A DNA stretch of 64,000 nucleotides from Escherichia phage UE-S5a: sequence record PP175015.1; one strand, 5' to 3'. This document shows, one piece after another, positions 1 to 60,320 of the stretch. The position numbers and the translations under genes are program-made. Within the stretch, counting starts at the first letter, position 1; each line of letters opens with the position of its first letter. A model generated the notes under the pieces. That model saw only the letters and a list, made by a program, of their open reading frames with translations, was not told where the DNA came from and did no database searches.

Positions 1-259
1 TATCCTTGCAGAATTCTTCAATACTTTTCTTACGCAGAGTCTCAGTCATAGCTGTCTCCTCTGCCAGTTTATTAACAAAGGTATGCATTTCTAATTTAGT
101 ACGGATGGCTTGTTTCTCTGCCATAGTACTTACATATGAATTAAGCATACCTACTGCTTTAGTTGCTGTACCGAATGTATCTGCAACAGTAGTAGCAGCT
201 GAGTTAACAGTACCAAGTAAAGTTCCTGCGGTCATACGTACAGTAGCTTGAGTAGTCAT
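1..259 (-). CDS. hypothetical protein (N-terminal part only; ORF runs off window start)
   Basis: ATG at 259-257 on minus strand preceded by GGAG; frame stays open to position 2; absent from ORF track only because no stop lies inside the window. Confidence 0.4.
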   Translation of the reverse strand, partial: MTTQATVRMTAGTLLGTVNSAATTVADTFGTATKAVGMLNSYVSTMAEKQAIRTKLEMHTFVNKLAEETAMTETLRKKSIEEFCKD

Positions 260-647
260 GATGATAGCTCCAATAGTTGATGATAGGACGACATGTCCAT
301 AACATGCGGAGCATGTGTAACGTGTAAGGTGGGGTAGGGTAGTGGCTACACCGTCAACATACCGGGGGGGCTAGTTGAGTGTAAGGGTGTAGCCCCAGCC
401 ACAACACTGCTGCTGTATATAGCTATCACAATTTTGACATGCAAAAATATTATAGGCACTATCTCTATAAGCAGATAACTTTGAGGTACTAACATGAAAG
501 ATGGTTGGGGTAATTACAATCCTACAGACCCTTAGAACTGGCTTCACTTTATTGCCTGTGCCTTCGCTATAGGATTCATAGGTATTGTACTCTTGTCACC
601 GGTTCTGCCTTATTTATAAATATTATGAGAAGGTATATATCTACCCT

Positions 648-920
648 CTATTTAGTTCTATATAACATCTTCTCTGCTCTATGCCCATTAACTGCTAAGA
701 AGTAGCATGGGCCAGATACATCGGATACCCTATCCCATGGTTCTAGTTTTATGAAGTTAACTATCATATTTCTAAGTAAGCACTCGCCTCTTAACCAGTG
801 ATAGTCTATATCGGAGTGAACATATACAGGTACATTGGGAATATTGTTACATATCCAATTCCATAGTATACCCTCTCCTACATGTAACCTTCCCATATCT
901 GATAGGAAATATAATCTCAT
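648..920 (-). CDS. hypothetical protein
   Basis: 90-aa ORF, tightly packed with neighbouring minus-strand genes (stop/start 920/922). Confidence 0.4.
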   Translation of the reverse strand: MRLYFLSDMGRLHVGEGILWNWICNNIPNVPVYVHSDIDYHWLRGECLLRNMIVNFIKLEPWDRVSDVSGPCYFLAVNGHRAEKMLYRTK

Positions 921-921
921 G

Positions 922-1251
922 CTAATCCTTATAAGCAGTTAAATAGGAGGAAGGAATCTGGGAGAGGATGTGGTCATAGTAATAGCAATATGCTTCACTA
1001 TTGGCAGAGTTTATAGGCATACCTATGTAGTCAAACGCCCACAAACAGAAATGGTTGAGTTCGTGGATGAGTGTATGTAAAGGTTCCCTAAAGATACCAA
1101 TCAATACTCGATTGCCAGAATAAGAAGTATACCCCTTACAACCATCCAAGTCTGGCTCATGCCCTTTAAGTTTCTTATACTTTTTAATGAAGGTATCCTG
1201 GTCGAATACTACTTCTAACTGTACCGGGTAGGGTGATGTGTTTAGTTTCAT
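922..1251 (-). CDS. small HExxH-motif protein (putative zinc metallopeptidase-like)
   Basis: 109-aa ORF containing LIHELNHF (HExxH) with a downstream Glu; start overlaps stop of upstream gene. Confidence 0.4.
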   Translation of the reverse strand: MKLNTSPYPVQLEVVFDQDTFIKKYKKLKGHEPDLDGCKGYTSYSGNRVLIGIFREPLHTLIHELNHFCLWAFDYIGMPINSANSEAYCYYYDHILSQIPSSYLTAYKD

Positions 1252-1719
1252 TAGAGACTCTCGTCGCTAGATAAATATGAGGTAGAAGGATAGAGGGTAA
1301 TAAGTCTACCAGTAAGGGTAGTTACTACCATAGGTTCACTCTCTGACAATATGTACACACTGGTGTGTTCCGGTATTTCTACGGAATCTACTATCTTAAT
1401 GAATTGGATAGGTTGCCCCAACATTAAGCAAGTACCTATGAACACATCTGCATCTTCACTTGGCTCATACAGGATGGTGGTAACTCTCCCCTTACCTGCC
1501 AGGATATTATCCAATGTATGGTATTTCTACGGAATCTACTATCTTAATGAATTGGATAGGTTGCCCCAACATTAAGCAAGTACCTATGAACACATCTGCA
1601 TCTTCACTTGGCTCATACAGGATGGTGGTAACTCTCCCCTTACCTGCCAGGATATTATCCAATGTATATGGAGACAAATAGCAAGTAGTAGCAAAGCTAC
1701 TAAGGCAATACAGATGCAT
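1251..1719 (-). pseudogene. GroES-like co-chaperonin gene split into two ORFs (1507..1719 and 1251..1514) by a 148-bp tandem duplication
   Basis: Both ORFs encode the same LDNILAGKGRVTTILYEPSEDADVFIGTCLMLGQPIQFIKIVDSVEIP segment; C-terminal ILSESEPMVV resembles the GroES C-terminus; duplication length is not a multiple of 3. Confidence 0.4.
1372..1667. repeat. exact tandem duplication, 2 x 148 bp (1372-1519 and 1520-1667)
   Basis: Two 148-nt units compared base by base and found identical; flanks differ. Confidence 0.9.
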
Positions 1720-1722
1720 ATC

Positions 1723-2037
1723 TTACTTCCTTATATAGTAGTAACAGTATTCATCATTTACATACCGACTATCCCATTGGTAGTCATTAGATACCAACAT
1801 ATATGGGATAGGGTCACCTGCACTGTAGTTGGTATAGACAGAGGGTGGAATAATACATACAACCTTACGATCATTACCTGCTAAGAATAGTTGTCCCCTT
1901 ACTTCATGGTAGTCCTCTAAGGTAGGAACCAGGATTACTTGCTGGGGGTTGCTGTTCATTACTTCTTCTAAAGAGAAGTCAGTTGTATACATAGATTCCC
2001 TTTCAGCAAAACTGGGGATGGTCATTATGAATTTCAT
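1723..2037 (-). CDS. hypothetical protein (paralog of 2003..2401 product)
   Basis: ORF track gives 1723..2100; ATG at 2037 has AAGGA RBS about 9 nt upstream; shares EDYHEVRGQLFLAGN-type motif with upstream paralog (EESHEVIGSLFLSN). Confidence 0.4.
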   Translation of the reverse strand: MKFIMTIPSFAERESMYTTDFSLEEVMNSNPQQVILVPTLEDYHEVRGQLFLAGNDRKVVCIIPPSVYTNYSAGDPIPYMLVSNDYQWDSRYVNDEYCYYYIRK

Positions 2038-2401
2038 GATTAATTTTCCTTCCTTTAGGAATAGGTCTGAAGTAAATGGAAAGTGTTTTATTAAAGACAT
2101 TATGGTCAGCTATCAATTCCCAACCAGGTATTTTATAGAACCTAACACCAGGGAAAATCATACTAAAGTCGCTGTAAAAGGAGAGGTCATACACCTTTGG
2201 TTCAGTGAGTATCTTAGTATTGAGTTGCAGGTTGGATAGGAAAAGAGAACCAATAACCTCGTGTGACTCTTCACAGTCAGGTAAGAATACTGTTTGCCAT
2301 GGGGTAATGAACTTACTTACTACTTCTGGTTCCCCAAGGTAATAAGGTTCTTGATTACGAAGTATCCCAGTAATATCAATATCAAAAGCGTAGATGCTCA
2401 T
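2003..2401 (-). CDS. hypothetical protein (paralog of downstream gene)
   Basis: 132-aa ORF, AGGAGG RBS at 2411-2416 upstream of ATG at 2401. Confidence 0.45.
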   Translation of the reverse strand: MSIYAFDIDITGILRNQEPYYLGEPEVVSKFITPWQTVFLPDCEESHEVIGSLFLSNLQLNTKILTEPKVYDLSFYSDFSMIFPGVRFYKIPGWELIADHNVFNKTLSIYFRPIPKGRKINHEIHNDHPQFC

Positions 2402-2417
2402 ATTTGCATACCTCCTG

Positions 2418-2453
2418 AAAAAGAAATGGGGTAGAGCCTCTCGACTCTACCCC
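2418..2453 (-). terminator. hairpin plus T-tract (minus strand) between small genes
   Basis: GGGGTAGAG / CTCTACCCC 9-bp stem (2428-2453) followed on minus strand by ATTTCTTTTT. Confidence 0.45.
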
Positions 2454-2601
2454 TTACCGTTTTCAATCACGGGTCAGTTCATCACCCTAGATACATGTGT
2501 ATCGTTAGCCTACTAGGTAGGAAAGGAGCCGGGTAACCCTGACTGTAGAAGTTATTAACTCTTTACGAGTACCGCCACTGTCTACTAGGCGGCATGACTA
2601 A

Positions 2602-3063: not shown

Positions 3064-3753
3064 ATGAGTGAACTAACTAAGCAGCAGATTGTTAATGCCC
3101 TACCTGCTAACTTCAAGAACAGTGTAACCCAGGAGTTGGTGGACACGATCAACAACATTACCCAAGACCAACTGGTTGCTGAGTCCTTCCGTGAAAACTT
3201 TATCTCCTACTCTGGTGTAATGAAGGAAGGTAAGTTTAAGACACAGGATTACATGAATGCAGTTCAGTATGTGACTTACAAACATATGGGCTATTCAAAT
3301 AAGGAAGCCTACTTCAAAACATTCCCTAACCGACAGGCAGAACTTGTAGCACGAGGAACCAGTGAGAAAGATATCAGTGCTTATGTATCTGCTTACCATA
3401 GGGGTAAATTGGTTAACCTCATCATGGAACAAAGTTTGGTTCCAGTGTGGATTGTGAACCAGGACAATTATCAAAAGGCTATCAACGTTCAGGTTGAACT
3501 AATGACCACAGCAGCAAGTGAGAAAGTAAGATGTGATGCAGCTAACTCTATCCTTACTCACTTGGCTAAACCGAAAGACCAGGTAACGAACATCAATCTG
3601 GACTTGAGAGAGAACTCCGGATTAACTGACCTCAAGGCAACACTTGCTGCATTGGCTGAACAGCAGATTAATGCAATCAATAGTGGAGTACCTACTAAAG
3701 AGGTTGCTGGTTCTAAACTAGTACGTGCAGATGAGGACATTACAGATGTCTGA
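3064..3753 (+). CDS. putative terminase small subunit
   Basis: 229-aa ORF immediately upstream of and overlapping the large terminase; position-based call. Confidence 0.4.
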   Translation: MSELTKQQIVNALPANFKNSVTQELVDTINNITQDQLVAESFRENFISYSGVMKEGKFKTQDYMNAVQYVTYKHMGYSNKEAYFKTFPNRQAELVARGTSEKDISAYVSAYHRGKLVNLIMEQSLVPVWIVNQDNYQKAINVQVELMTTAASEKVRCDAANSILTHLAKPKDQVTNINLDLRENSGLTDLKATLAALAEQQINAINSGVPTKEVAGSKLVRADEDITDV

Positions 3754-5335
3754 GTTAATTAAACAGGAACTGGATGAATGGCTGGACCAGGTGGACTACT
3801 CCCACCTTAATTCATCTAACTATGTTCCTAGTCAGTTTGCTCTTACCTTTGCCAACTTTATTAAGTTGGTTAATGGCAAAGAAGGTGAATCCAACAAAAC
3901 ACCTCCAGTTCACTTGAAGATGTTGGATAAGATGATTAGCCCGAACCAGTATGTAGTTAACCTGTGTTTCCGTGGTGCAGGTAAAACTGCTGTGTTCATG
4001 GAGTACTTTACTTTGTTCCTGGCAGTGTTTGGTCATTTACCAAGCCTGGGTAAGGTAGAAGGAATGATTTACGTATCTGACTCAATGGATAACGGTGCTA
4101 AGTCTGCACGTAAGAACATTGAGTTCCGTTACAAGAATAGTGAGTTCCTTCAGCAATGGATACCTGAGGCTACATTTACAGATAACCTTCTGGAGTTCCG
4201 TAATGTAGAAGGACATCGACTTGGTGTTAAGTTGTTTGGTGCTAAGACAGGTCTTCGTGGTACGAAGATATATGGTAAACGTCCAACACTCTGTGTACTG
4301 GATGACTTGATTAGTGATGGTGATGCTAACTCCAAGACAAGCATGGAAGCTATTAAGGATACCGTCTATAAAGGTGTGAACCATGCTCTTGACCCAACCC
4401 GTCGTAAAGTAATTTTCAATGGTACTCCCTTTAATAAGGAAGACATTATCATTGAAGCAGTTGAGTCTGGTGCATGGGATGTCAACGTATGGCCTGTATG
4501 CGAGAAGTTCCCCTGTAGCAGGGAAGAATTTCAGGGTGCATGGGATGACCGTTTCTCTTATGACTATATCAAAGCCCAATACGATATGGCAGTTAAGACG
4601 GGTAAGCTGGCAGGCTTCTATCAGGAACTTATGCTTCGTATTAGTTCTGAAGATGAGAGACTGGTTCAGGATAGTGAAATTAGGTGGTATAGCAGACAAC
4701 AACTATTAAGGATGAAGTCCTGCTACAACTATTACATTACAACTGACTTTGCTACTTCGGAGAAACAGACCAGTGACTACAGTGTCATTTCAGTTTGGGC
4801 TTATAGTTCTAATGGAGATTGGTTCTGGGTTGATGGTGTGGCTAATCGTCAGCTTATGGATAAAAACTTTGATGACTTATTCCGTCTGGTTCAGGAATAC
4901 CAACCACAAAATGTTGGGGTCGAAACCACAGGTCAACAAGGTGGATTCATCTCACTCCTTCAAAAAGAAATGATTAACCGTAATGTCTTCTTTAACTTTG
5001 CATCCTCTGAAGGTGGTAAGCCAGGCATACGTCCTGTAACCTCTAAGCTGTCACGCTTTAACCTGGTAGTTCCATGGTTCAAAGCTGGTAAGATGTACTT
5101 CCCGGAAGAGTTGAGAGATTCAACTATTATGGGTTTGTTCATGGGCCAGATTAAATTAGCTACCATTAATGGAATCAAAGGTAAGGATGACTGTATTGAT
5201 ACTATCTCTATGCTGGGTTATCTCAATCCCTGGAAACCACAGGCAGGTATGACTATGGTGGATAACAAGGGTGACCCGATGTGGGACGATGAAGAAGAAG
5301 ATAGTGTTAACCCCCTACGTTCATATATTGTGTGA
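3746..5335 (+). CDS. terminase large subunit
   Basis: ORF 3725..5335; Walker A-like RGAGKT, ATPase plus nuclease architecture of about 530 aa; likely start ATG 3746 (MSELIKQ) with GAGGA RBS. Confidence 0.8.
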   Translation: MSELIKQELDEWLDQVDYSHLNSSNYVPSQFALTFANFIKLVNGKEGESNKTPPVHLKMLDKMISPNQYVVNLCFRGAGKTAVFMEYFTLFLAVFGHLPSLGKVEGMIYVSDSMDNGAKSARKNIEFRYKNSEFLQQWIPEATFTDNLLEFRNVEGHRLGVKLFGAKTGLRGTKIYGKRPTLCVLDDLISDGDANSKTSMEAIKDTVYKGVNHALDPTRRKVIFNGTPFNKEDIIIEAVESGAWDVNVWPVCEKFPCSREEFQGAWDDRFSYDYIKAQYDMAVKTGKLAGFYQELMLRISSEDERLVQDSEIRWYSRQQLLRMKSCYNYYITTDFATSEKQTSDYSVISVWAYSSNGDWFWVDGVANRQLMDKNFDDLFRLVQEYQPQNVGVETTGQQGGFISLLQKEMINRNVFFNFASSEGGKPGIRPVTSKLSRFNLVVPWFKAGKMYFPEELRDSTIMGLFMGQIKLATINGIKGKDDCIDTISMLGYLNPWKPQAGMTMVDNKGDPMWDDEEEDSVNPLRSYIV

Positions 5336-12987: not shown

Positions 12988-13111
12988 AGTTACCTCGCAG
13001 TTGATACCAGACACTATGTCTGGATGTATCCCATCATACTAAGTATTATCTAAGAGTCATCTTATGATACGACCCTATTGGGGTTCTTAACTTTACAACT
13101 ACGGTAATATT

Positions 13112-13441
13112 ATGAATGAATCGGGCGAACTGCTTCTAGTCAGACTGGAGGAACGATTGAAGACTCTGTTTGAGAATCAGACGAGAGACAGACAGGACCG
13201 TGAGAAACTGGAGGAAACTCTGGGAGAATTACGGGATTCAATCAATGACATAGGCAATAGACTAAAAAATGTGGAGGATAGCTTAGCTAAGAATGAACCT
13301 ACTATTGAAGAGTTCATCACCATTAAGCATAAAGTTGTTGGTGCTGGAATTTTTGGTAAGTGGGTATGGGCTGGAGCAGGTGCAATTATTGGTGTATTGG
13401 CTGCTGCAAGACGGGAGATATTCGCATGGTTCGCAGGCTAA
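13112..13441 (+). CDS. coiled-coil protein with C-terminal transmembrane segment (lysis-associated candidate)
   Basis: 109 aa; charged helical N-terminus, C-terminal GAGIFGKWVWAGAGAIIGVLAAA hydrophobic segment; directly upstream of holin-like gene. Confidence 0.4.
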   Translation: MNESGELLLVRLEERLKTLFENQTRDRQDREKLEETLGELRDSINDIGNRLKNVEDSLAKNEPTIEEFITIKHKVVGAGIFGKWVWAGAGAIIGVLAAARREIFAWFAG

Positions 13442-13686
13442 AAAGAAAAGTAGAGTTAGTACCTAACTGGAAAAGGTGTTGGAAGTGGGCATCCATTCAG
13501 ATTAGTACACTTGGTTTAGTTCTATTTTCCGCTATAGATATTATCCAACCAATGGTGACAGGATTACCTCGTCACATCTTGGAAGATATTCCCCATGGTT
13601 CCAATATTGCAATCGCACTGTTTGCCTTAAACATCATAGGCAGATTAATACGATTCCGACCAAAGGAAGATTCACATGAAAGCTAA
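13426..13686 (+). CDS. putative holin / pinholin (two TM segments)
   Basis: ATG 13426 inside ORF 13360..13686; MVRRLKRK basic N-terminus followed by two hydrophobic segments; immediately upstream of endolysin. Confidence 0.45.
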   Translation: MVRRLKRKVELVPNWKRCWKWASIQISTLGLVLFSAIDIIQPMVTGLPRHILEDIPHGSNIAIALFALNIIGRLIRFRPKEDSHES

Positions 13687-43253: not shown

Positions 43254-45464
43254 TTATTTGCCAGCGTAGCGTTTAGCCACGGTGACCATTACGGTTGCAT
43301 TCAATTCATCATCTGGTAATGGATTAGCCAGTTTCTTATTGAATGTGTGGACGGCTTGCTGTACTTGAGCAAAGTCCCAACCACTGTCAACCAATGCCAG
43401 TGCGTACTTAATCATTTGATTATTACGATTACCGGAGGCAATACGACTAGCGAACCAACGCTCCAGATTATCCAACGACTGTACTTCCTTCATCTGGTTC
43501 TGGAACTGCTCGTTCTTACTAGTACGAGGAATAAAGTCACGCACATCTAACAGATTCGCATCAAGATTGTAATGATAGGAACCAGTCTCACAGGACATCC
43601 ACTTCTTGGCTCGTTGGTTAGCAGACTCATCTGTTTCAAATGGTAGCCAAGCCATAACGTTATTCATGAACTCTTTGTATTCCTCAGTGTCGAGGTGTAA
43701 CTCATAGTTCATTGGAATAATCAGACGGAAGCGGTTCTCTTCATCAGTATGACGCTTGGTGGTATAGGTCATGAACTTATATTCCTTCATTAGTTCATGG
43801 CACGTATGCAGGGGTACTCCACCATCACAGTCAATAACAATCATGTTAAATCCTGGGATAACATTTTCTTCAGAACGATGCCCATTCTTCATGTGATGGT
43901 TTACCCAGTGCATACCGGGAGCTTGGGTTAATACATGCAACTGGTCGAACGGTACACGTTCACCAATGTAGTCATAAGCAAAGCTATCACTATACGCCAC
44001 AATCATCTCATTGATGTCTGTCTCTTTAAGAGTTTCACCACGGAAGAACTCAATACCTTCATTGAAGGTCTTCTTAATGATGATGTGCTGCTTGTAACCC
44101 CATGCTGTAGCAAGAGTCATCATCTCATTACGAGCTGCATTACCACTCTTATAGAATGGTAAAGACTCCACCAAATCAGCATGGGTTACTTCTTTACCTA
44201 CAGAAGCAATGTACTTAGCCAGCTTCACATAAGCCTTCTCACGATTGAGGATTGTCTGAAATGCTGCTCCAGATTCTTCTACAAGCAGAATTGCTTGTTT
44301 AAGGTGGGTCATCTCAATGAATGAACTTTGGTCAACAAACGCCAGTGCACCTGCCAGCTTAAGTGCTTTGAAATAACGGTGAGAAATTTCAGCTTTACGA
44401 ATATCTTCATGGTCAGCCATAGCTTCTGCTTGCTTCTCACAATCAATTTTGTAAGCAATCAGAGCAATACCCACGGCATCTTCTACAACCATCTTAAAAC
44501 CAAACAGGTTTGGGTCAGCCAGACTATGGAAATGGTTAGCCCACTTACCAAGAGTCTGTACGTTATCTTGTTTAATCAGGTTACGGTAGATTTCTTCCGG
44601 GGTTAGTGTTGCATGTGCTCTCTTGTCTAAGTGACCAGTAGCAAACAGACAGCGACGTGCATACCCTATATCGAGAAAGCCATAGAACTGGTCTTCAGTC
44701 TGACCACCATCCAGCAGCTTACTCGGAGTACCGAACAGCAGCAGGTTAGTTGGAGTTTTTCCATCCAATTCTTCACCACGAACGCTTTCAGCAGTATTCT
44801 TGGTTAGCTTCTGTTTTACTTTTCCCTGGTCATATAACTCCAGGAATAGGGTTAGTACATCCATGTTAGCCAACAGGTTCGAACCAATTTCATCAATCTG
44901 AAGATTGATTGAACCACACCCAGCCATTAACAGCTTATGCCGTAGCTGTTTAACTGCTGGTGGAGTACCAGAGTCAAACGTAAACGGATATGCCCCGGCA
45001 CGTTTATACTCTGCTTCAACTTTATCAAACTCTTCCTGCTGGTCAGTACCCTGACGAGCAGAACGTTCGTTAGCAATCTTCCATAGACGATCATTTGCAA
45101 TGACGGGCATGGTGTCTTCCATAAAGCGTTTACGGAAGCCAGACATGAACCCGTCTTCAATGATATTTACTGAGTGACCTTTACCGAAACCAGATGTAGC
45201 CAACGCTATAGCGTAGATGTTTACCGGCAGGTCACCACGGTCTTTAGTTACAATGGTTGCACCCATGCAGGATGCCATTTTAGCCAAGAAGTAGGCTACT
45301 TCGACACGGAAGAATCCCCGGTCATTATTCTGGGTTTTATTGCAGAGCACATCTACGATTTCTTCAATCGCCTGATGATGCACTACTCCGGTAAGGTCAA
45401 TACTCATGATGGAAAATATCTCTCTCTTTGTTTGCAAATGGATGCGACAGGGCAGTATAAACAA
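43254..45464 (-). CDS. putative DNA primase / replication initiation protein
   Basis: 736 aa; NMIVIDCDGG resembles archaeo-eukaryotic primase motif I; position upstream of DNA polymerase. Confidence 0.4.
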   Translation of the reverse strand: MFILPCRIHLQTKREIFSIMSIDLTGVVHHQAIEEIVDVLCNKTQNNDRGFFRVEVAYFLAKMASCMGATIVTKDRGDLPVNIYAIALATSGFGKGHSVNIIEDGFMSGFRKRFMEDTMPVIANDRLWKIANERSARQGTDQQEEFDKVEAEYKRAGAYPFTFDSGTPPAVKQLRHKLLMAGCGSINLQIDEIGSNLLANMDVLTLFLELYDQGKVKQKLTKNTAESVRGEELDGKTPTNLLLFGTPSKLLDGGQTEDQFYGFLDIGYARRCLFATGHLDKRAHATLTPEEIYRNLIKQDNVQTLGKWANHFHSLADPNLFGFKMVVEDAVGIALIAYKIDCEKQAEAMADHEDIRKAEISHRYFKALKLAGALAFVDQSSFIEMTHLKQAILLVEESGAAFQTILNREKAYVKLAKYIASVGKEVTHADLVESLPFYKSGNAARNEMMTLATAWGYKQHIIIKKTFNEGIEFFRGETLKETDINEMIVAYSDSFAYDYIGERVPFDQLHVLTQAPGMHWVNHHMKNGHRSEENVIPGFNMIVIDCDGGVPLHTCHELMKEYKFMTYTTKRHTDEENRFRLIIPMNYELHLDTEEYKEFMNNVMAWLPFETDESANQRAKKWMSCETGSYHYNLDANLLDVRDFIPRTSKNEQFQNQMKEVQSLDNLERWFASRIASGNRNNQMIKYALALVDSGWDFAQVQQAVHTFNKKLANPLPDDELNATVMVTVAKRYAGK

Positions 45465-46384
45465 CGCTTAACCTGCCCCTCCACGACCTTGATAGCACCC
45501 TTGCCACCTTTTTCAGCCATGAAGATACGAGCAGATGCCATATCGTCAAAGTTTTTGGTACTTCTGGCTCCAGGCATATCTACCTTAGAAGCATCAGAGA
45601 AGTATTTGAACTGTGGCTCTGTTCGCCACAACTCCTCGTCAGTACATTCAGGAATTTCCTCTTCAGGAGCATCCCAGTACTTTTCGATGAGATGTATCTT
45701 CTCTTCTACCCAACGTTCAGTCTTATCGACAGATAACAACGGAATATCCTTATGCATAATACGATTAGCAGGATAGTTCGGATTGCTATTAGCCATGTGT
45801 TTCATGAAGTCAGTGAAGATGTAGTTAATACGGATTACATCCTCGGTAATGATGTCGTTGTGAATCCAACGGTACAAGCTACCTTGCATCTTGTGTTCAT
45901 CATCACGGGAACCAGCAACCCAGGAATAGGTTGAGGTAGACTTAAAGTCTTGCAATAGACCTTCTGTTACGATGTCGAACTTACCCCCGATAGTCCAACC
46001 CTTAACTACCCTGGTTCCACGTTGTTCAATGTAGATTGGGATAAGGTCAGGGTTAGCATCAAAGTCTGCTTTGGTTGGGTTAATGACTACTGCATCAATT
46101 ACTCGCTGAGGATAGCCCAGCTTCTTCAATGCAGTCTTATGACCCAGCTTCCAGGCTTTCTCAATAGAATCGTGTAAGCCAGTACCCATTGATGTGGAGA
46201 CAAAATCCATAACATCAATTGACTGGTCACTGAGGTCTACACGATGCTTCATGACGATTTGCTTAAGTGGCTTAAGCAGTGTGGTTACAGACAGATACTT
46301 AGGATTGTCTACATAATCATACTCGTCATGTAATAGCCATACAGCCAGGGCCAGCGAGACATCATGGTTGTTGGTTATCTTCAT
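45404..46384 (-). CDS. PD-(D/E)XK family nuclease (RecB/Cas4-like exonuclease candidate)
   Basis: 326 aa; GKFDIV...QDFK core motif, C-terminal Cys cluster CLYCPVASIC. Confidence 0.45.
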   Translation of the reverse strand: MKITNNHDVSLALAVWLLHDEYDYVDNPKYLSVTTLLKPLKQIVMKHRVDLSDQSIDVMDFVSTSMGTGLHDSIEKAWKLGHKTALKKLGYPQRVIDAVVINPTKADFDANPDLIPIYIEQRGTRVVKGWTIGGKFDIVTEGLLQDFKSTSTYSWVAGSRDDEHKMQGSLYRWIHNDIITEDVIRINYIFTDFMKHMANSNPNYPANRIMHKDIPLLSVDKTERWVEEKIHLIEKYWDAPEEEIPECTDEELWRTEPQFKYFSDASKVDMPGARSTKNFDDMASARIFMAEKGGKGAIKVVEGQVKRCLYCPVASICKQRERYFPS

Positions 46385-46851
46385 CAGTAAGTAATCCTGT
46401 ATCTATGCACCTGGTTCCAACGAATACTCTCTACCTCATCGAAGCTATAGCTGACTATGTTATCTAGTTCACCTTTGTACGCTACCTCAATGAACTGAAA
46501 GTTCACTGTTAGATAAGGCTTTCCATTCCCCGGGTAATGCCAGCATCTCCCAGTAGCAGTGATATCTGTGGCAGGTAATTCATCTACTAACTTCTCTTTA
46601 GTAAGAATACGATTAGCGTAATGAACCAATTTCTCACAGTCATAAACTGAAGTGTTTCCAGGTTTACCATTACCCATACGGGCAGCAGCATTTCGCCATA
46701 GAGCTTTAAAGGCACAACCTTCATCGAAGGTCATGCCCAGCGCTTGGATAATATCCTCACACTCTGCTTGGTATGGCTCTTGCTCTTTCCGTTGGGGATT
46801 CTTAATTGTAACTACATAGTAGTTATTAAGACCACCGGAGAGCTTAGTCAT
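46384..46851 (-). CDS. hypothetical protein
   Basis: 155-aa ORF, translationally coupled. Confidence 0.4.
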   Translation of the reverse strand: MTKLSGGLNNYYVVTIKNPQRKEQEPYQAECEDIIQALGMTFDEGCAFKALWRNAAARMGNGKPGNTSVYDCEKLVHYANRILTKEKLVDELPATDITATGRCWHYPGNGKPYLTVNFQFIEVAYKGELDNIVSYSFDEVESIRWNQVHRYRITY

Positions 46852-47156
46852 TATTCCCCCTTGGGAATCATGTTTGCCTGGAACTCTGGTTCAGACATCA
46901 GGCCCAGGTTGTTAATAGATAGATAAACAATATCTTTCAAATCAACTGAGGTATCGAAACGCTGATCCAGACTAATCTTCAGTGAGTGATTGGCACGAGC
47001 CAAATCTTTATAGGTCACATGAGGTTCGTCAGTGAGCAGCATTGTGTTCATGGTAAGCAGGGAGCCATCATCAGCTTTAGGAAGCTGGAAGATTACCTGT
47101 GCTGCCACCATCCAATGATACTTTTTGACTACAGTTTCTTTAGTACTTTTGGTCAT
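46851..47156 (-). CDS. hypothetical protein
   Basis: 101-aa ORF, translationally coupled. Confidence 0.4.
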   Translation of the reverse strand: MTKSTKETVVKKYHWMVAAQVIFQLPKADDGSLLTMNTMLLTDEPHVTYKDLARANHSLKISLDQRFDTSVDLKDIVYLSINNLGLMSEPEFQANMIPKGE

Positions 47157-54534: not shown

Positions 54535-57102
54535 TTAGTTACCTTTCAGTTTATTTAGACGATTACGGTAGAGGGACTTAAACCCAGGAATATCCTCTGG
54601 ATTTTTCTTGAGGTGTTTAACTAAACTCCCCAAGTCCAGACTCTGTAGTATGTCACCAGCACTCCAGCTATAGCTGAATAACCCCTTGTACTGATTAAGT
54701 ATTTCAAAGTACTTATGATTACGCGGATTAACCATCATTGTATATGGCTCTAAGTCATCAACTGACTTAATACAACCCATTTCAACAAGTTTTTCTTTGT
54801 TGTTATGTGGTCGATTCCGTAGAAAGTCATATGCCCATTCATACTCTGGTTTAAAAATCAGATTCTGTAATGGTTTGAATGTTAGACCAAGAATATCGAG
54901 GATTTCCCAGTATTCCCTGTCATCTAATCCTACATATTCCAGAATACCAATACGGTGTTCAGTAACATATTTCTTGAAGCCTTTGCTGGTAATAACTGGC
55001 ATCAGCTCCATAAAACGAACGTCATCAATGTGAATAGCACCACGTCGTTTAGCTTTGTTAGCTTCAATTTGATTGCGACAGACAACAGTCTCTGCTTTCA
55101 TCTCGTCAGATAACTCATACCATTTCCACATGGTTCCAATCCGAGCAGTTACAGGACTACCAGAACTAACCTGATTGGCTAGTACGTAGTACTTAGGCTG
55201 TTCCACTTCAACGAAACCGTACTTCTCATGGAAGCTTGGGTCAGTAAAATCCTTGTCAATGTACGGCTTAGAATCCCAATCCCCACTTTTATTTCGTACA
55301 GGAGTAGTACCGAGAACTGCATTCAACGAAATCAGAGCATTAGTTTTACCCCCTGCTTTGGTTTTATTGGCAGCTATCGTCTTAGCTCGTTTCTCAGCAG
55401 CTATCTTAGCTTGTTCTCTGCGGTAGTTAGTTGGTTTGTCCCACTCATTATATTGAGTGAGGTCAATTACCCGATAACCCATAGCAGTGAACTTAGCTAC
55501 AGCTTCTTCTGCTGCACCCTTTTTAGGACTAACGACGTGAACAAAAGCTGTACGCTCCAGGTCACCTCGGTTGTACTCAGGGAAGTATGAGAAAGAGTCT
55601 GCACAGTCAGATAAACGTCGAGTAACTACAACGTTCTTGGTAGTGAATATACCAATACTCTGGTGGGAGTTATGGTACATCTTAAAGTAGTCAGTAAGTT
55701 TGCCTTTTATCAGGTCTACAAAGTTACCCTGGTTCATTATGTAACCAGACCATTTAATGCCAGTAGCTTTTAAATCAGCAAGCTGAGGTAAGTGCAGATG
55801 ACGATATACTAATTCCTGGAATGAGGAATATGTATTTGCTTCACGAGTATCCTTAAGGGCACGCATAGCCTTACCATACAACTTCTTAAGACCTGCATAT
55901 TCGGGACGAGCTAGTAATGCTTTGTTAGATAAGTTACGCCAGTGCTTGATGTGATGCTTACGTTGCTTAGCCCATAAACTAGAGGACATATAACTTTGAA
56001 CAATTGGGTCTGTAACAGCAAGTAGGAAAGATGGATACTCCCAAAAGCGAGTAGAGGATTTAGAGGCGTATTCTTCAACCTGCTTAATAGCTTCAGGAAT
56101 TTTAGCCCTAATCTCTTTCTCCATACGGTCTACTAAATCTACACACAGAGTAGTAATACCATCGTCAGTTAACTTCTGGTTAGACAGTGTTTCTCGACTA
56201 GGAGCAATAGCTAGAGTATCAGGTGCAGCCTGAACCACCAGATTAGAAGCACCAATGATATTCATAAAGTTGAGGATAAGACCTACAGCCTCTTCACTAG
56301 CTGGGCTGGATACAATTGGGTACATTACGTTACCGTAACGAACGAATATGTTACTGTTACCCATATAGCCTTGATACCATCTATCAGACATATCGTATGA
56401 ACCAGGTTCAAATGACATTCCTAGTGTATTCAGTAGAGTGTAGTCACCTTGCTGAATACTATTACCTTCTTCTGTTTTAACGAGTTTAGGGATACTAAGT
56501 TCAGCTTTAATCTCACCGTTAAATACTATTGATGTGATGTAATGTACAAAGGTATTTAAATCATGCTTGCCTAACTGGAATTTAACTTCCAGCCCAGATT
56601 CCTCAGTAGGAATATTAGTAACAATAGGAACAATGCCTGGTTTACCGTCATTCTCAATCGCAGCTTTAGCTACGTTATATACCGACATCTTTCCCTGGTT
56701 CCATGAAGTAACCTGGAAGCTATCTGTATAAGCGAACGGGGATTTACATCCCAGACCAAAACCACCAGTAACACTACTGTTGGCTTTCTTAGTAGATGCA
56801 CCATAGACACCATAAATGGAACCAATGAGTTCATCGGGGATGCCATTACCAAAGTCACGGAAGGTAATAAAGTTGTCTGTATCAATAGTGATACGAATAG
56901 GGGTATCAGTCTTACCTGCTTCAATATGAGCATCCCAACTGTTACAGATAGTCTCACGGACTACTGCCAGAGTAGGATTGTTATATAAGGAAGTACTTAA
57001 TACATGGAAGAATGCCGGGTCATCAGAGATGCCAAAGGCAATTGTTTCTTTGCCACCCAGTGTCGCTGAGGTAGCTACTTCATTGGTATCTGCAACTAAC
57101 AT
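54535..57102 (-). CDS. rIIA: rIIA-like protein with GHKL-type ATPase domain
   Basis: 855 aa; N-terminal motifs ETICNSWDA, RDFGNGIPDE, GGFGLGCKS resembling the histidine-kinase-like ATPase fold. Confidence 0.55.
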   Translation of the reverse strand: MLVADTNEVATSATLGGKETIAFGISDDPAFFHVLSTSLYNNPTLAVVRETICNSWDAHIEAGKTDTPIRITIDTDNFITFRDFGNGIPDELIGSIYGVYGASTKKANSSVTGGFGLGCKSPFAYTDSFQVTSWNQGKMSVYNVAKAAIENDGKPGIVPIVTNIPTEESGLEVKFQLGKHDLNTFVHYITSIVFNGEIKAELSIPKLVKTEEGNSIQQGDYTLLNTLGMSFEPGSYDMSDRWYQGYMGNSNIFVRYGNVMYPIVSSPASEEAVGLILNFMNIIGASNLVVQAAPDTLAIAPSRETLSNQKLTDDGITTLCVDLVDRMEKEIRAKIPEAIKQVEEYASKSSTRFWEYPSFLLAVTDPIVQSYMSSSLWAKQRKHHIKHWRNLSNKALLARPEYAGLKKLYGKAMRALKDTREANTYSSFQELVYRHLHLPQLADLKATGIKWSGYIMNQGNFVDLIKGKLTDYFKMYHNSHQSIGIFTTKNVVVTRRLSDCADSFSYFPEYNRGDLERTAFVHVVSPKKGAAEEAVAKFTAMGYRVIDLTQYNEWDKPTNYRREQAKIAAEKRAKTIAANKTKAGGKTNALISLNAVLGTTPVRNKSGDWDSKPYIDKDFTDPSFHEKYGFVEVEQPKYYVLANQVSSGSPVTARIGTMWKWYELSDEMKAETVVCRNQIEANKAKRRGAIHIDDVRFMELMPVITSKGFKKYVTEHRIGILEYVGLDDREYWEILDILGLTFKPLQNLIFKPEYEWAYDFLRNRPHNNKEKLVEMGCIKSVDDLEPYTMMVNPRNHKYFEILNQYKGLFSYSWSAGDILQSLDLGSLVKHLKKNPEDIPGFKSLYRNRLNKLKGN

Positions 57103-60041: not shown

Positions 60042-60320
60042 TTACTCTGCTTTACTGCCACCATTGGTTTGAACAACAGTTACGTTTGTAACTTGGTTCT
60101 GACCTTTGTTGGACAGTGACCAAATCAGTGCTACTACCCAGAAGACTAAAGACCAGCCTAATACAATATTAAGCACACCAATGCCCCACTTGGAGGCATG
60201 GCCTCGTGCAAAAGCAATGATAGTAGGGATGAGGTATACAGCTAATACAAACAACATAACAAGGATTGCTGCTAAAGATTCCATGATGGTTCCTATGTGA
60301 GGTTGAGTTAGTTTCTTCAC
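60042..60320 (-). CDS. superinfection-immunity-like small membrane protein (Imm family candidate)
   Basis: 92 aa, two TM segments; IIAFARGHASKWGIGVLNIVLGWSLVFWVVALIWSL resembles the Imm_superinfect signature as I recall it. Confidence 0.5.
   Translation of the reverse strand: MKKLTQPHIGTIMESLAAILVMLFVLAVYLIPTIIAFARGHASKWGIGVLNIVLGWSLVFWVVALIWSLSNKGQNQVTNVTVVQTNGGSKAE

Follow-up and report, generated by a model that had tools for sequence, protein, structure and literature searches.

The genome of Escherichia phage UE-S5a, as deposited (PP175015.1), carries an exact 148-bp tandem duplication that breaks a small minus-strand gene into two overlapping reading frames. The sequence, taken together with the published contig coordinates, makes it very probable that this duplication is not a property of the phage: it would be an overlap shared by both ends of an assembly contig, which was left untrimmed and made internal when the contig was rotated to the genome terminus. 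A preliminary description of the window, by which we mean the whole stretch of 64,000 nucleotides that was analysed, had offered three readings of the complete identity of the copies, namely a very recent event, an unstable locus or an assembly artefact; the artefact is the one that we hold with strong confidence, while a very recent event appears improbable and an unstable locus scarcely credible.

The duplication and its boundaries

The duplication is seen directly in the deposited sequence, and its initial characterization as an exact 148-bp tandem array was borne out by inspection of the sequence, by Tandem Repeats Finder and by a repeat finder, all of which agree on two base-identical units (148/148) lying head-to-tail and directly abutting each other (Table 1). 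Tandem Repeats Finder reported a period of 148, 2.0 copies, 100% matches, 0 indels and a score of 592, and no other tandem array with a score of at least 80 was found in the whole 64-kb window; likewise, a BLAST comparison of the 64 kb with itself returned no internal repeat besides this one. An exact match of 148 nt cannot have originated by chance. Regarding the boundaries, position 1371, just before copy 1, is c whereas copy 1 ends in t (position 1519), and position 1668, just after copy 2, is a whereas the unit begins with g (position 1520); there is thus no microhomology (0 bp) at the join, which is blunt.

These features bear on the main alternative, according to which a genuine and very recent tandem duplication arose in UE-S5a by replication slippage or illegitimate recombination, splitting or inactivating a right-end accessory gene related to gp71.2 of phage G7C. 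We regard this as improbable. The duplication is, after all, present in the deposited sequence; however, events of this kind commonly, if not obligatorily, leave microhomology at their boundaries, and the copies show zero divergence.

Table 1. Coordinates of the features discussed, as positions in the UE-S5a window.
Feature	Position	Strand	Remarks
Left copy of the 401-bp direct terminal repeat (DTR)	1..401	.	Rotation point; reference for the junction arithmetic
Gene affected by the duplication, probable true span	1251..1719	-	321-nt CDS, 106 aa once one 148-bp copy is removed
87-aa ORF, probably artefactual, TTG start	1251..1514	-	Residues 20-106 of the 106-aa protein
70-aa ORF, probably artefactual	1507..1719	-	Residues 1-67 of the 106-aa protein, followed by 3 residues read out of frame, YIG
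Copy 1	1372..1519	.	100% identity with copy 2; under the best explanation, the final 148 bases of the contig
Copy 2	1520..1667	.	First 148 bases of the contig under the best explanation, in which case redundant and to be trimmed
Junction of copy 1 and copy 2	1519/1520		Sequence GATATTATCCAATGTAT/GGTATTTCTACGGAATC
Terminase small subunit	3064..3753		
Terminase large subunit	3725..5335		
Intact exonuclease, 327 aa	45404..46384		Also intact in UE-M3

Comparison with related phages

UE-S5a is a G7C-like N4-type podophage (Schitoviridae, Enquatrovirinae, Gamaleyavirus). A megablast search with window positions 900-2500 matched 55 phage records, of which those of Escherichia phages UE-S5b, UE-M3, UE-M6, PBM-3 and PBM-2 are 99.9-100% identical. 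The comparison with sister genomes proposed in the preliminary description as a check was performed on these near-identical phages, and in all of them (5/5) a single copy is directly observed, the match spanning 1,453 bases in each relative against 1,601 in the window, i.e. 148 fewer. With a query centred on the junction, the same five relatives match in two pieces, both of which fall on one 148-bp stretch, and the junction of the two copies was found in one piece in none of 50,697 phage genomes. A junction 34-mer was also absent from the IMG/VR viral contigs and the JGI metagenome contigs, in scans that have no power for this purpose: a single-copy control 32-mer was equally absent from the viral contigs, so these collections lack the lineage and are uninformative about the junction.

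The closest comparison is provided by UE-M3, in which window positions 1-1519 correspond to 1-1519 and window positions 1520-64000 correspond to 1372-63852, both at 100.000% identity with 0 mismatches and 0 gaps. After removal of one copy the window is string-identical to positions 1-63852 of UE-M3, and therefore the extra copy is the sole difference between the two sequences in 64 kb. Beyond the window, the UE-M3 record (PP301342) contains an exact tandem repeat with a 55-bp period (71,721-71,831) that is unique to this phage and present as a single copy in UE-S5b and UE-M6. The 148-bp copy and this 55-bp repeat together account for the difference in size between the two genomes, given that 73,728 (UE-M3) + 148 - 55 = 73,821, which is the published size of UE-S5a. 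The 55-bp repeat falls at the position of UES5b_082, where UE-M3 has no annotated gene. A genuine duplication would thus have to be missing from all relatives, including the otherwise identical UE-M3.

The affected gene and its intact form

The 148-bp unit corresponds to nt 53-200 of the single-copy CDS, and the additional 148 nt on the minus strand shift the reading frame, giving rise to two overlapping ORFs of 70 and 87 aa. Both ORFs exist as first described, and so does the intact ancestral frame of about 106 aa that had been proposed for them, which is annotated as one gene in the sister phage UE-S5b (UES5b_04, 1251..1571, 106 aa). The gene belongs to a cluster of small genes on the minus strand (346-2892) that lies between the left terminal repeat and the terminase genes.

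When one copy is removed, residues 1-105 of the restored 106-aa protein align with positions 1-105 of the 106 positions of the phrog_12099 profile (E 3e-54). The protein is 83% identical to gp71.2 of Escherichia phage vB_EcoP_G7C, and 100% identical to a sequence whose cluster is named UES5b_04. By sequence, the gene is assigned to the phrog_12099/G7C gp71.2 family, whose function is unknown; it shares with the family an end-to-end profile match, and differs in its appearance as two fragments in the window, for which the extra copy is solely responsible. When 5.8 billion proteins were searched with the restored protein, 247 relatives were retrieved. Among the best 120 of these 247, which include G7C gp71.2 and U1G gp88 and many of which are encoded on contigs of 70-73 kb, sizes range from 98 to 108 aa, almost all being 105-107 aa, and no split form of the gene occurs. 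Moreover, an alignment of 29 homologues contains 39 invariant columns that are spread over the full length. The homologue sizes and these conserved columns indicate that the single-copy form is the conserved, selected form. Among the genes on record in public assemblies, none encodes exactly the 70-aa or the 87-aa product; a genuine duplication would accordingly have neither its junction nor its fragment ORFs on any independent record. The gene is, on the other hand, small, genus-restricted and of unknown function, and its loss by a genuine duplication could be tolerated.

The label of GroES-like protein that had been attached to this gene could not be sustained. No Pfam family, Cpn10 (PF00166) included, was matched at E <= 1 by the restored protein or by either fragment, BLASTP gave no alignment with E. 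coli GroES at E <= 100, and a profile search against the PDB returned just two matches, both unrelated (E 0.7-1.2). What the protein has in common with the GroES/Cpn10 group, which includes gp31 of phage T4, is a small size of about 100 aa, a prediction of mostly beta strand and a short C-terminal motif, ILSESEPMVV in the window protein as against IMSESDILAIV in GroES.

Contig coordinates and the position of the join

UE-S5a was described in a single study together with three other phages, the genome sizes being 73,821 bp for UE-S5a (PP175015), 73,766 bp for UE-S5b, 73,728 bp for UE-M3 and 76,110 bp for UE-M6; sequencing was performed with Illumina PE150 and the assembly with A5-miseq from subsets of 50,000 reads (PMC11927229). 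PhageTerm identified a 401-bp DTR in all four phages, at contig positions 71,902-72,302 in UE-S5a, 13,108-13,508 in UE-S5b, 55,507-55,907 in UE-M3 and 71,795-72,195 in UE-M6 (PMC11927229). In agreement with this repeat, the first 401 bases of the window match at 100% both ends of UE-M3 (1-401 and 73,328-73,728) and also the ends of UE-S5b.

These coordinates allow the position of the former contig ends to be calculated under a model in which the contig is turned to the start of the DTR and a second DTR copy is appended. For UE-S5a, the model gives an original contig of 73,821 - 401 = 73,420 bp, and the piece moved to the front, contig positions 71,902-73,420, comprises 73,420 - 71,902 + 1 = 1,519 bases. 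It follows that the join between the contig end and the contig start lies between window positions 1519 and 1520, precisely on the boundary between the two copies. This correspondence is observed directly in the published coordinates, and the odds of the join falling on the copy boundary by coincidence are about 1 in 73,000.

The joins in the sister genomes were predicted from the same formula before the records were inspected. For UE-S5b the join was predicted after position 60,258, and an "N" sits exactly there; it is an inserted base that UE-M3, UE-M6 and the window lack, and it shows as a 1-nt gap in the alignment. As the 73,766 bases of UE-S5b include 69 N sites, the chance of an N at the predicted join is about 0.1%. 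This N is a closure scar, and its presence at the predicted site validates the rotation model on an independent record. The join predicted for UE-M3, between 17,821 and 17,822, is clean and bears no scar, from which it can be concluded that trimming was done correctly in this case, that the overlap was not retained in every genome, and that rotation is visible only in records in which the overlap escaped trimming. In the case of UE-M6, the start of the contig was inferred from the PhageTerm position and the 73,165-bp period of the record; assuming the same orientation, the contig apparently starts at the equivalent of window base 1372 (position 1370 in the UE-M6 record), as in UE-S5a. As the two genomes are 99.6% identical, the shared contig start is most simply explained by a deterministic cycle break by the assembler. 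The contig start of UE-M3 differs from the one shared by UE-S5a and UE-M6.

The agreement between the rotation arithmetic and the copy boundary is not decisive when taken alone, since a real 148-bp repeat assembled at k = 149 would likewise cause the main contig to start and end with the unit. The length of the unit, and its recurrence elsewhere in the data set, must be considered as well.

The 148-bp length as a probable assembly overlap

An exact duplication of 148 bp is directly observed at a second place in the data set. In the UE-S5b record (PP301341), at an unrelated locus, exact 148-bp copies occupy positions 45,905-46,052 and 46,054-46,201 with one "N" between them, and a pair of 262-bp copies (46,507-46,768 and 46,770-47,031) is also joined by one "N". 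These N-joined copies are scaffolder butt-joins of contigs with untrimmed overlapping ends; they split the exonuclease and the phosphatase/kinase genes, neither of which is interrupted in UE-M3 or in the window. The UE-S5b joins resemble the window duplication in coming from the same study and the same pipeline, in their 148-bp length and in the false splitting of a gene; they differ in that the join is flagged by an "N", whereas the copies in the window abut without any flag. The recurrence of the same length in two genomes processed by one pipeline, at loci that are unrelated, indicates that 148 bp is a property of the assembly and not of the gene. For a genuine duplication, the unit would have to equal by coincidence the overlap length of the pipeline seen at the UE-S5b N-join.

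A further sign that end redundancy was not cleanly handled in this data set comes from the UE-M6 record (PP301343), whose right end (73,166-76,110) is an exact 2,945-bp copy of its left end, as against the reported DTR of 401 bp; the true length of the genome is probably near 73,566 bp. The 2,945-bp terminal redundancy of the 76,110-bp UE-M6 record is not reproduced by any simple rotation model. Within this terminal copy, genes UEM6_084-088 duplicate UEM6_02-06. A total of 71 Ns occur in the UE-S5b record, and the clustering of many of these at variable sites is suggestive of a mixed lysate.

Proposed origin of the duplication

Taken as a whole, these observations can be accommodated by the following sequence of events. 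The 401-bp terminal repeat would collapse during assembly, rendering the assembly graph cyclic, and the assembler would emit a single contig whose last 148 bases are the same as its first 148 bases. A5-miseq assembles with IDBA-UD, a de Bruijn assembler, and we infer a final k-mer of 149, a plausible value for 150-nt reads, with which an overlap of k-1 = 148 would be obtained; a literature search for reports tying A5-miseq to a 148-bp overlap found nothing. The authors would then have rotated the contig to the PhageTerm terminus, so that the record would consist of contig positions 71,902..73,420 followed by 1..71,901 and a second 401-bp DTR. With the overlap left untrimmed, the former contig ends would become an internal, exact and blunt tandem duplication, whereas in the true genome the unit would occur once and the 106-aa gene would be intact.

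The duplication shares several traits with the terminal-overlap redundancy (of k or k-1 bases) of de Bruijn assemblies: the repeat is exact, with a blunt join and a length equal to that of the overlap at another join, its boundary coincides with the meeting point of the contig end and the contig start, and the relatives have a single copy. Such redundancy is usually located at both ends of a contig, whereas in the window it is internal, a difference that is due to the rotation of the contig to the PhageTerm terminus. In the original study, the authors report that they mapped the reads onto the contigs and that an ApaLI digest was in agreement with the assembly (PMC11927229). Neither procedure would be able to expose a 148-bp overlap of the ends, and the contig used for the mapping was the unrotated one.

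Alternative explanations and the reported phenotype

The genuine very recent duplication introduced above finds its sole hint in the reported phenotypes, UE-S5a forming plaques of 1 mm compared with 2 mm for UE-M3 and having a narrower host range (PMC11927229). These phenotypes differ although the remaining 63,852 bases of the window are identical in the two phages, and, in spite of this identity throughout the first 64 kb, a real difference between them may exist somewhere. It is conceivable, at a low probability, that a real 148-bp duplication splits the gp71.2-like gene and perhaps adds to the smaller plaques and the narrower host range; if true, this would be a natural knock-out that gives a phenotype to an ORFan of the G7C-like phages. 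However, the differences may be attributed to the last ~9.8 kb of the genome outside the window, where UE-M3 has its 55-bp repeat, or to assay noise.

Even less probable, to the point of being hardly worth entertaining, is a heterogeneous population with an unstable locus, in which the lysate would mix one-copy and two-copy genomes and the assembler would have reported the two-copy form: the common start of the UE-S5a and, apparently, UE-M6 contigs at base 1372 could mark a branch of the graph, and the many ambiguous bases in UE-S5b suggest mixed lysates, but the final UE-M6 record is single-copy at this locus, a deterministic cycle break would be expected to give the same start in genomes that are 99.6% identical, and the 148-bp coincidence with a constant of the pipeline applies equally here.

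Consequences for the sequence records

If the duplication is an untrimmed contig overlap, as we consider very probable, it has no biological significance, and PP175015 should lose 148 bp (for example positions 1520-1667), with the intact 106-aa gene replacing the two fragments. Comparable problems exist in the sister records, PP301341 having its N-joined duplications and PP301343 its terminal redundancy of 2,945 bp. The case illustrates how a contig-end overlap turns into an internal "frameshifting duplication" after re-orientation of a phage genome, and that published contig coordinates can suffice for its diagnosis without the reads.

Other observations in the UE-S5a region and its relatives

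Some additional features of these genomes were noted. In the block of small minus-strand genes, an ORF of 132 aa at window positions 2003-2401 (minus strand) has a match to phrog_9160 that covers the entire ORF (E 1.7e-63); it is unannotated in the sister records, where it corresponds in UE-S5b to a gap at 1889-2454, and it is probably a missed gene. In UE-M6, an insertion of ~505 bp at 45,253-45,768, between the primase and exonuclease genes, carries an HNH homing endonuclease (UEM6_036); this insertion is absent from the window (~45,401-45,407) and from UE-M3, and represents a presence/absence polymorphism of a mobile element between phages that are nearly identical.

Two other small right-end genes on the minus strand, 1723-2037 and 2602-2892, belong to phrog_11661 and phrog_7213, respectively, and both show weak matches to phrog_16338 (E 0.0095 and 1e-4, in the same order). 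The motif E-x-HE-[VL]-x-G-x-[LM]-[FL]-L is common to the two products and, judging from this resemblance, the two genes may be diverged paralogues.
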